Assembly: GCF_013167455.1 (NCBI RefSeq)
Contig: NZ_CP038328.1
Direction: 5' to 3' (one strand)
DNA from: Escherichia coli O157:H7
Lineage (GTDB): Bacteria > Pseudomonadota > Gammaproteobacteria > Enterobacterales > Enterobacteriaceae
Length of the DNA stretch: 64,000 bases
Every line of letters starts with the position of its first letter. Positions within the stretch are counted from its first letter, which is position 1. The notes beneath the pieces are model-generated. The model was given only the letters and a program-made list of their open reading frames with translations. It made no database searches and was not told the DNA's origin. This document shows positions 11,765 to 12,907 of this stretch, piece by piece. The position numbers and the translations under genes were made by a program.

Positions 11765-11927
11765 GAGTCACCTCCTGACGGATACGGGCGACAAAAATCA
11801 GATGTGCGTGCGGCAGCCGGGCGCGTGCTTCGCGCTCAGTGGCAGCGGTAACGGTGAATATTGCAATGCTGTCTGTCAGGCACTGCATAAAGCGCCAGAC
11901 AAAGTAAGGGCGTGCGGATACAGCCAT
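11757..11927 (-). CDS. Icd-like / Ash-region small protein (56 aa from ATG 11925-11927; the ORF is open to 12065)
   Basis: GAGGAG RBS lies 8 nt upstream. MAVSARPYFVWRFMQCLTDS... and the upstream MVG...PSG...SKANSV... extension resemble what databases label Icd-like and Ash-family proteins of P4-like elements (from memory). Confidence 0.5.
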   Translation of the reverse strand: MAVSARPYFVWRFMQCLTDSIAIFTVTAATEREARARLPHAHLIFVARIRQEVTHA

Positions 11928-12907
11928 GTGAAAGGCTCCTCTGACTTTGGGATTATACCCACCGCCCAAGAGGCCAATCTTGCTGGCGGTGGACTGTACG
12001 GAATTGGCCTTACTGGTGTTAGAGGAAACCAGCCTTCCCGAAGGAAGTTCCATACAGCCCACCATTGTTGAGGTGTGCGTGTGCGCCGATACAAAAAAAA
12101 AGACGCTGGCGCGTCGTGTATCGCCTCTAACTCCAGCGGGAGGCCAATCCCGATCCCCGTTTTATAAGGGATAGCCTCAGTATATGCCGCTTTTTTGCTT
12201 AAGTGGTCGGATGTGTTGCGAGAGAAGTTTGTGCGAAAAATACCTGCGTTTTCTTTGAAAGCACATAATAACATCACGTTATTTATGTTTATGCAGTGTG
12301 TCGCAAAGCGACCTGAATCATCACGCAAATTACAACCATAAAAAATACCTGCGCTGTGATATGAGGTACTACAGCGCACCGCTTTACGGGTACAGACAAT
12401 GACAAATGAAGAATTACAGGAAATCGCATTATCCATACTTGAGCGACAGCGCGAAAAAGCACAACGGCAAAGGAGGTTGTTACTTAATCCACTGCCACTC
12501 ACCAGGCCAACACGATTTGCCCTTGAAGATTTTGTCGAGAAATACCCACGGCGGTTAAAAGCCACTAAAAACCGACCGCCTGGCTGATAGCCTTGTCCAC
12601 CAGCTACACTCATGGCATAGTTGGTGATGCGCTTGATTTCCTTTATCTCCATTGGCGACCCTTCCGTGGTCGCCTTTGTTTTGCCTGCCATTCCTGCATC
12701 ATGCGGATATTCGCGCCATACAGGGCCACCAGCGCGATAATTTAATAAAACCTCCTTCTGATAATGCTTAACGTGTTTCATGCGCTCAGCGGCGAAATGG
12801 CTCACGATATGGTGCATGTAATCAGAATGGTTGAGGCTCAGTTGTGCGAACGTATCCGCCGTGTCGATGTACAGGGCGGCAGCGTTGCGGATGTCAGGCA
12901 TGTTCAT
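11876..12907 (-). CDS. uninterrupted 343-codon ORF; only the first ~100 codons look coding, so its real extent is uncertain
   Basis: GGGAGAG RBS, and the ATG overlaps the end of the antirepressor gene by 14 nt. The N-terminal third has E. coli-like codon usage. The rest is Cys/Ser/Arg-rich and crosses a terminator, a TATAAT box and the Icd-like gene in another frame. Confidence 0.3.
   Translation of the reverse strand: MNMPDIRNAAALYIDTADTFAQLSLNHSDYMHHIVSHFAAERMKHVKHYQKEVLLNYRAGGPVWREYPHDAGMAGKTKATTEGSPMEIKEIKRITNYAMSVAGGQGYQPGGRFLVAFNRRGYFSTKSSRANRVGLVSGSGLSNNLLCRCAFSRCRSSMDNAISCNSSFVIVCTRKAVRCSTSYHSAGIFYGCNLRDDSGRFATHCININNVMLLCAFKENAGIFRTNFSRNTSDHLSKKAAYTEAIPYKTGIGIGLPLELEAIHDAPASFFLYRRTRTPQQWWAVWNFLREGWFPLTPVRPIPYSPPPARLASWAVGIIPKSEEPFTWLYPHALTLSGALCSA
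12093..12115 (-). terminator. intrinsic terminator on the minus strand inside the 343-codon ORF
   Basis: The minus strand reads GACGC-GCCA-GCGTC followed by T9 (complement of 12093-12101). Confidence 0.5.
12399..12587 (+). CDS. possible small basic helical protein (62 aa), antisense to the long ORF
   Basis: MTNEELQEIALSILERQREKAQRQRR... is followed 66 nt later by a good plus-strand terminator. The RBS is weak. Confidence 0.35.
   Translation: MTNEELQEIALSILERQREKAQRQRRLLLNPLPLTRPTRFALEDFVEKYPRRLKATKNRPPG
12654..12683 (+). terminator. intrinsic terminator on the plus strand
   Basis: ggcgacc (12654-12660) pairs with ggtcgcc (12668-12674) and is followed by tttgttttg. Confidence 0.55.

Follow-up and report, generated by a model that had tools for sequence, protein, structure and literature searches.

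A reading frame of 343 codons that stays open through an intrinsic terminator, a gene on the opposite strand and the start of a further gene raises the question of what keeps it free of stop codons. The frame (11876-12907, ATG start) lies on the minus strand of a 64,000-nt stretch of Escherichia coli O157:H7 DNA (contig NZ_CP038328.1 of assembly GCF_013167455.1; "the window" in the following), in the immunity region of an island adjoining yicC; features are on the minus strand of the window unless stated otherwise. An earlier note, written from the sequence alone, had picked out this frame and suggested an RNA-based or antisense switch of unknown design. We find that the frame passes through two RNA genes of established families in the order known from phage P4, and by analogy we consider it, with a probability of roughly 60%, to be the island counterpart of the P4 eta frame, in which case ribosomes crossing it would let transcripts from upstream escape RNA immunity. 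Neither the RNAs nor the eta principle is new, and the switch is a variant of a known design.

The RNA-based switch expected for an immunity region of the P4 type is borne out by two Rfam matches above their gathering scores. A C4/CI-type immunity RNA (RF01695; 11982-12069) matches model positions 1-87 of 87 with 73.8 bits (gathering score 45), and upstream of it lies an isrK/seqA-type RNA (RF01394; 12096-12172), a marginal pass with 52.1 bits versus a gathering score of 50. The minus-strand terminator described in the earlier note is confirmed by the terminator scan and is that of isrK, composed of the stem GACGC-GCCA-GCGTC (12102-12115) and a run of nine T (T9; 12093-12101). A candidate -10 box for isrK (TATACT; 12179-12184) is located 6 nt upstream of the 5' end of the RNA and is identical in five related modules; we infer that it is the analogue of the -10 box (TATAGT) of P4 PLE. 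The c4-a1b1 type of upstream target region gave only a weak match in the window (21.8 bits versus a gathering score of 46.7).

C4 carries the specificity boxes GGCCAAU (12003-12009) and CCACCGCC (11985-11992), and downstream of it, upstream of the icd Shine-Dalgarno sequence (11936-11941), follow the target boxes AUUGGCC (11972-11978) and GGCGGUGG (11959-11966) of the seqC/a2b2 type. The loop of the second isrK hairpin presents another AUUGGCC (12142-12148) complementary to the first C4 box. On one transcript, GGCCAAU can thus pair with AUUGGCC both upstream and downstream of it, and CCACCGCC with GGCGGUGG. These sites had been noticed before as two interleaved inverted repeats with mutually exclusive or pseudoknotted stems; their coordinates are correct, and the supposed oddity corresponds to the known pairings of the CI (seqB) and seqC type. 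Across the modules of relatives and P4, the first box falls into five classes (AUUGGCC, UUACCAC, GUAGGAA, GUGAGAA and UUUAGCAG) with all three sites changing in concert, and the second specificity box co-varies with its target as well. The cognate C4-isrK duplex of the window is predicted at -32.4 kcal/mol versus -10 to -20 kcal/mol for non-cognate pairs, cognate duplexes being the strongest in the cross-module matrix, and both box pairings recur when the read-through transcript is folded to minimum free energy (-106.8 kcal/mol, z = -5.3). The immunity specificity of such islands is readable from three short co-varying boxes.

The closest known system is the immunity region of phage P4 (record NC_001609; L010 in our numbering of loci), with its PLE-seqA-cI-seqC arrangement and nested kil and eta genes. 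It resembles the island in element order, in its Rfam matches and in the primase operon that follows; the same two families are found in the same order within the 197-codon eta frame, with 74.9 bits for P4 CI. The AUG of P4 eta abuts the stop of ORF88/alpA in an ATGA overlap, and the frame then runs through seqA/isrK and CI/C4 to end as the 65-aa Kil protein, which aligns with Icd-like proteins. The island frame similarly starts at the stop of an upstream co-directional gene, spans both RNAs (12172-11982) and leads to an Icd/Kil-type protein, and it even reads the isrK terminator stem in the same codon register as eta (as D-A-P codons). Unlike its P4 counterpart, it is 343 rather than 197 codons long, includes an extra N-terminal module of 107 codons and is coupled not to alpA directly but to the gene for AntA, which is inserted between alpA and eta. 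Further differences are an antisense plus-strand gene of 62 codons with its own terminator inside the frame, the specificity box (AUUGGCC in the island, GUGAGAA in P4) and a T9 run that leaves the frame out of frame with Icd. For P4 itself, translation of eta is described as preventing immunity-specific termination (Forti et al. 1999, J Bacteriol 181:5225, as summarised in PMC10111431).

Along the transcript, the long frame begins with an overlap of the antA stop and then passes in turn antisense through the 62-aa gene and across the candidate internal promoter, isrK with its terminator, C4 and the seqC-type boxes before Icd. The frame and its 14-nt overlap with the antirepressor stop are present as the earlier note had described them, though the overlap shortens to 8 nt (junction ATGCCTGA) from a second in-frame ATG (12901), which is the start chosen by gene callers. 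The good ribosome-binding site claimed for the frame fits only this second start, since GGGAGAG stands 7 nt before the second AUG and 1 nt before the first.

What sets the frame apart is the absence of stops. Within 11876-12907 it has no internal stop while each of the other five frames has 10-19, and the 36 stop triplets of the minus strand are split 0/19/17 over its three frames (P roughly 5e-7). If the 62-aa gene is left aside, the two remaining minus-strand frames have 16 and 13 stops versus none; with codons 1-107 left aside as well, they still have 8 each versus none (P roughly 1e-3 for this part alone). The 268 codons upstream of the T-run are all stop-free and so is the AT-rich stretch at 12186-12398. 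It could be argued that such openness is a by-product of the plus-strand gene, the GC-rich RNA genes and codon bias without any selection, given that housekeeping genes of the same window have shadow frames of 360-382 codons opposite them and that openness inside the 62-aa gene is expected anyway (P = 0.5-0.7). We consider this very improbable: the stops missing outside the 62-aa gene and the equally open AT-rich stretch speak against it, and openness is kept in diverged islands and across inserted gene cassettes, always in the permissive register. Decisive are the conservation of the frame in relatives and the small share of it, 62 of the 343 codons, that has a called gene on the opposite strand. 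Shadow frames opposite codon-biased genes are likewise long and stop-free, but they lie wholly opposite one long gene, whereas most of the island frame faces no gene on the other strand, and the frame extends across RNA genes and intergenic DNA; moreover, the shadow frame opposite the gpmI-like gene (the one case checked, by hand) is in the codon-aligned register, while in the island frame the third codon positions coincide. The earlier judgement that a chance frame of this kind is unlikely is thus well founded in its absent stops and its conservation, though length alone is no proof.

In related E. coli islands (designated by L numbers), we scored openness as the stop-free stretch in the frame equivalent to the long frame of the window. 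It extends over 308 codons in L006, 475 in L009, 508 in L003, 529 in L004 and 623 in L005/L008, in each case fused to Icd, and the frame is open despite differing plus-strand small-gene cassettes inserted within it. A stop around residue 90-130, which the earlier note had named as a sign of fortuitous read-through, is found in none of these homologous islands. For a wider view we used a scan of IMG/VR, in which 80 Icd-encoding loci form 30 sequence clusters, in place of a profile search of genome contigs with an Icd alignment that had given 3 loci. Measured 200 nt upstream of Icd, the median open stretch over the 30 clusters is 183 codons in the Icd frame versus 42 and 20 in the other two; 29 of the 30 have at least 154 open codons in some same-strand frame, and the longest stretch in the Icd frame reaches 765 codons. 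C4 was detected inside or just upstream of the long frames in 16 of 31 representative loci scanned. Other long Icd-frame open reading frames (ORFs) of 264-403 codons run antisense through genes of the YlcI/YnfO family (L094 2558-3694, L006 1503-2429, L012, L049, L055, L057 and L076), and in their islands Rfam detects neither C4 nor isrK. Of 5,426 complete E. coli genomes, about 1,600 hold DNA similar to the L049 frame.

Composition speaks against a functional protein over the whole length of the frame. As had been noticed before, only the first 100 codons or so look normal: codon-usage log-odds, computed without stop codons, are +0.18 for codons 1-107 (12587-12907, a helical N-terminal module) and -0.01 to -0.22 for the rest, compared with 0.23 +/- 0.16 for the real genes of the window and -0.27 +/- 0.18 for off-frames. 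All five other frames score negative over the stretch of codons 1-107, which within the long frame is the only part that looks coding and translated by these measures. Residues 108-343 are enriched in Cys (4.2% versus 0.8% in the real proteins of the island) and Ser (10.6% versus 5.5%) and are also rich in Phe and poor in Lys, Glu and Asp; the Arg enrichment that had been claimed alongside Cys and Ser is not seen. An exhaustive HMMER search with codons 1-107 gave 17 relatives only, and those retrieved are long ORFs of the same kind or Rha-type fusions, except for one weak repetitive match. Pfam and PDB searches with this module gave neither a match nor a known fold, its AlphaFold model is of low confidence (pLDDT, the predicted local distance difference test, 61.6), and its differences from L004 are too few for a useful ratio of nonsynonymous to synonymous substitution rates (dN/dS).

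A functional protein of 343 residues, be it an "Ash" protein or a member of the Bro network, whose sequence matters over its whole length would fit the coding-like codons 1-107. In some islands (P0034, P0037 and P0038) this module (residues ~18-107) is fused as an in-frame extension to a Rha-type regulator, of which it makes up the C-terminal part. A protein would also fit the annotation of such ORFs, with a 380-aa "Icd-like protein" called in L009 by PGAP (the NCBI prokaryotic genome annotation pipeline), gene-caller predictions of 183-644 aa and the existence of a Pfam Ash family. We nevertheless regard it as quite improbable. Residues 108-343 are charge-poor, with codon usage unlike that of coding sequence, and there are no homologues beyond the family and no domain match, searches of the 343-aa ORF against Pfam, NCBIfam and PHROGs having given nothing except a short PHROG match over isrK. 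The middle part is swapped wholesale for unrelated cassettes in relatives with the frame still open, and over the 62-aa gene purifying selection is stronger in the plus-strand frame. Finally, the two structured RNAs cover precisely the "Ash" stretch that is conserved. As a side observation, the Rha-type fusion ORFs reach up to 572 aa and lead from a genuine DNA-binding domain across the RNA genes as far as Icd.

The Ash family deserves closer attention in this respect. What Pfam Phage_ASH (PF10554) describes is precisely the isrK-C4 stretch as translated in the eta frame, and in P4 (L010 8330-8704), L009 and L004 it likewise corresponds to the isrK/seqA-C4/CI-seqC stretch, so its conservation may be largely driven by the RNAs. 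P4 eta (residues 20-144), L009 (240-326) and L004 (364-463) pass its gathering score of 26. In the window, the T9 run splits the domain over two frames, and the 343-aa ORF has no match while a 102-aa ORF falls just short with 23.9. This 102-aa orf45/Ash-Icd frame (11757-12065) matches NCBIfam NF033153 (phage_ICD_like; 49.3 bits versus a cut-off of 25) and PHROG 29966, has, like Gifsy-1 orf45, a pair of AUGs spaced by 12 nt at its start inside C4 and leads into a 56-aa Icd/Kil-like protein at its end (11757-11927). "Ash family" and long "Icd-like" calls at this place are translations of two structured RNAs, and these RNAs are unannotated in the records inspected. For the long-frame region of the window PGAP gives only a partial "ash family" pseudogene and no long coding sequence; such pseudogene calls overlie unannotated RNA genes.

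How the long frame relates to Icd depends on the length of the T-run in the isrK terminator, which is T9 in the window and T7 in L009 with identical flanks. In silico, T7 and T10 give ORFs of 382 and 383 aa that end as Icd, T8 gives 295 aa and T9 the observed 343 aa. The conserved eta part of the frame (12102-12907) is hence followed by about 72 codons of out-of-frame tail (11876-12092), because T9 shifts it off the orf45/Icd frame, and it ends at 11876, 51 nt past the icd AUG and not nested with Icd. The overlap with Ash/Icd in another frame reported by the earlier note is real, but it is an allele-specific frameshift of T9 versus T7 and not a feature of the design. Among complete E. coli genomes, about 72 have a T9 allele that is 100% identical (strains of O157:H7, O103:H2 and O111:H8 among them), 2 have a run shorter by 1 nt (ATCC 43889 and UTAK-1), and 14 have a run shorter by 2 nt together with long Icd-like annotations. 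A T8-type product is found in the protein database (P0029), though the T8 cases may be real or assembly errors.

These alleles bring up the alternative that the frame is a decayed relic, a former P4-type eta-Icd frame that T9 has inactivated and that has no function and has not yet gained stops. T9 does break the fusion present in T7 relatives, the T8 allele shows a third outcome, the pseudogene call with no long coding sequence fits a relic, and the 72-codon tail could be open by modest luck. On the other hand, a T9 allele shared without a single difference by so many genomes of several serotypes speaks against decay, and the codons before the T-run are still free of stops. In L011, L013, L047 and L080, moreover, the long frame also ends shortly ahead of Icd, or enters Icd out of frame and soon stops; fusion to Icd is therefore not universal and seemingly not required for delivering ribosomes. 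We consider decay unlikely on balance, less so than a functional protein or chance.

If the frame is indeed an eta counterpart, the behaviour of P4, P1 and Gifsy-1 suggests how the region would work. In the quiescent state, the internal promoter alone would fire and yield a short isrK RNA and a processed C4 RNA, whose boxes GGCCAAU and CCACCGCC would pair with the isrK loop (AUUGGCC) and with the two downstream targets, AUUGGCC and GGCGGUGG; transcripts would be terminated or left untranslated, keeping Icd and the replication genes (the primase operon) off. Upon induction, transcription would come from the alpA/antA promoter with ribosomes coupled into the long frame, and their passage through the terminator and the RNA boxes would keep the hairpin from forming, C4 from pairing and Rho from loading, so that the transcript would escape immunity and reach the replication genes. 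As it is ribosome passage that would count, selection would act on openness and not on most of the amino acid sequence. T7 alleles give a true Eta-Icd fusion, whereas the T9 frame leaves the orf45/Icd frame.

Several points weigh against this reading. That the frame is translated, that an internal promoter is active, that C4 is processed and that Rho is involved is in each case deduced from the known systems, and the candidate isrK promoter has no recognisable -35 box and was not flagged by the promoter scan. In the window, the long frame lacks the nesting with Icd that is a defining feature of P4 eta and kil, and the allele could be a decayed copy. Its openness inside the 62-aa gene counts for little, being expected in any case, and the two shadow frames of the window exceed its length with no Pfam match of their own, one of 382 codons (44736-45884, plus strand) opposite a gpmI-like phosphoglycerate mutase gene and one of 360 codons (39741-40823) opposite a zinc alcohol-dehydrogenase-like gene; the existence of such frames means that length alone is not decisive. 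The conserved openness, too, rests largely on sequences that share ancestry, and these comparisons are not independent. Two other ideas were considered and discarded. The TATAAT at 11952-11957 is present as the earlier note had it, but its role as an icd promoter is not upheld: it has no acceptable -35 box, was not flagged by the promoter scan and is missing from the L004, L003 and P4 modules. The terminator of the 62-aa gene (12654-12683, plus strand) was considered as a bidirectional block to the long-frame transcript and rejected, the minus strand having no U-tract after the hairpin.

The 62-aa gene (12399-12587, plus strand) and its terminator, found by the terminator scan, are both where the earlier note had placed them, and the gene is a PGAP coding sequence (WP_071827874.1). 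Compared to a 77%-identical homologue, dN/dS is 0.33 in the 62-aa frame, 0.58 in the eta frame and 1.1-1.5 in other frames, which suggests that it is probably a real gene. Its antisense placement stands, though nothing found here shows the regulatory role that had been proposed for it in an antisense switch. About 930 further complete-genome records hold DNA ~77% identical to the gene and its upstream region. Searches of Pfam, NCBIfam and PHROGs placed neither the 62-aa ORF nor its neighbours in a family, with the exception of YlcI/YnfO in L006. All nine of the nine embedded plus-strand genes examined are in one antisense register that leaves the frame open, with third codon positions coinciding; given the plus-strand protein, the probability of antisense openness is 0.09-0.7 per embedded gene. 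Between the divergent isrK and 62-aa starts, the repeated motif that had been noticed in the AT-rich stretch proves to be a 13-nt direct repeat, AAAAATACCTGCG, with only two exact copies in the window (12236-12248 and 12341-12353, plus strand), 105 bp or about ten helical turns apart; the pair may represent operator sites. A copy of the 62-aa gene (77%) with its upstream region is present at L007 3001-3399 (E. coli O104:H4) in a different, apparently degraded context next to a helix-turn-helix (HTH) gene. This locus retains the first copy of AAAAATACCTGCG and not the second, and 2 kb from the gene copy it carries the known small RNA Esr41 (5338-5411; 103 bits).

Similar arrangements are known beyond P4. 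In the isrK-orf45-anrP region of Salmonella Gifsy-1 (Hershko-Shalev et al. 2016, PMC4825925), isrK with its leaky terminator is followed by a C4-like RNA (STnc1160) as in the island, the ORF in the C4-type RNA also has two AUGs 12 nt apart, and a long-range pairing of mid-isrK with downstream RNA is predicted. IsrK is described as a structural homologue of P4 seqA, and the orf45 of Gifsy-1 within the C4-like RNA is shown to undergo translation, with coupling to the gene downstream (PMC4825925). Gifsy-1 orf45 stops and is coupled to a downstream antirepressor, whereas the orf45-type frame of the island runs into Icd with the antirepressor upstream, and no eta-like upstream frame has been described for Gifsy-1. 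The "Bro zone" of Gram-negative and helper-embedded phage-inducible chromosomal islands (PICIs) shares an integrase, AlpA, Bro-network genes and replication genes with our island, and there, too, C4 and isrK matches lie inside Bro-network ORFs with a Phage_ASH domain, according to PMC10111431. In the same paper, relatives of CI and seqA in Gram-negative PICIs are picked up with the C4 and isrK profiles. Its text names neither YlcI nor YnfO and makes no mention of opposite-strand genes embedded in these ORFs, nor, as far as a term search shows, of T-run frameshift alleles.

A further parallel is the immI operon of phages P1 and P7 (c4-icd-ant), reportedly worked out by Citron and Schuster in 1990 and by Riedel et al. 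in 1993. There, C4 is said to be an antisense RNA processed from the operon transcript, with flanking complementary targets and with icd next, as in the island. The ant gene of P1 reportedly lies downstream of icd, unlike the antirepressor gene of the island, and the upstream target region is matched only weakly in the island (the c4-a1b1 score given above), the upstream element there being of the isrK type with its own terminator.

As far as a limited literature search goes, three aspects may be new, namely an extended frame whose embedded opposite-strand genes all keep to a single register, long frames in islands where neither C4 nor isrK is detected (L006, L012, L049 and L094) and the T-run alleles. 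An odd-looking frame in an island of the enterohaemorrhagic E. coli type would find its explanation in a mechanism already worked out for P4. It is tempting to go further and see eta-like frames as a widespread class of ORFs in which openness serves the passage of ribosomes and not a product, with the T7/T8/T9 run as a slippage-prone or phase-variable switch. This broader proposal draws on the frames of 300-765 codons in E. coli satellites, on opposite-strand small-gene cassettes (the 62-aa family and YlcI/YnfO) that occur only in the register that leaves the frame open and on frames lacking C4 and isrK, and we put it forward as a speculative idea with the odds clearly against it. If true, the length of the T-run would set both terminator strength and ribosome entry into the orf45/Icd frame. 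The satellites in any case offer a large natural set of frames seemingly selected only for openness, some of them with opposite-strand genes, that could be used for tests of translation-dependent antitermination.

The window is 100% identical to E. coli O157:H7-type chromosomes. All on the minus strand, the genes of the island run from the integrase (15059-16372) over a 216-aa hypothetical protein, an AlpA-like HTH regulator and AntA/AntB to the long-frame region, the Icd-like gene, three small genes and the primase (9127-10953). The AlpA-like gene (13810-14025; Pfam HTH_17 and Phage_AlpA), the analogue of P4 ORF88, is the first gene of the upstream operon and is preceded by promoter-like sites (14121-14162, promoter scan); the AntA/AntB antirepressor gene (antA; 12894-13742; Pfam AntA with 84 bits, also annotated by PGAP) belongs to the same operon. 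The int-alpA RNA family (RF02996) gave no match in the int-alpA region of the window and is above threshold in the related islands L012 (1069-1137) and L046 (1236-1302). Many islands carry two immunity modules in tandem, each composed of isrK or a1b1, C4 and icd (e.g., L003 1980-2727, L005 1881-2628, L014, L019, L039 and L043). In L003 and L005, the tandem modules were compared and have differing specificity boxes, and a conserved 8-nt ATG/stop overlap (ATGCGTAA) joins them. Such 8-nt overlaps in many IMG/VR loci were considered as independent evidence of coupling and set aside, most of them being one conserved junction of tandem Icd modules. Unrelated to the island, a JUMPstart RNA element (RF01707) is found on the plus strand of the window at 25836-25874 with 55.2 bits versus a gathering score of 35.

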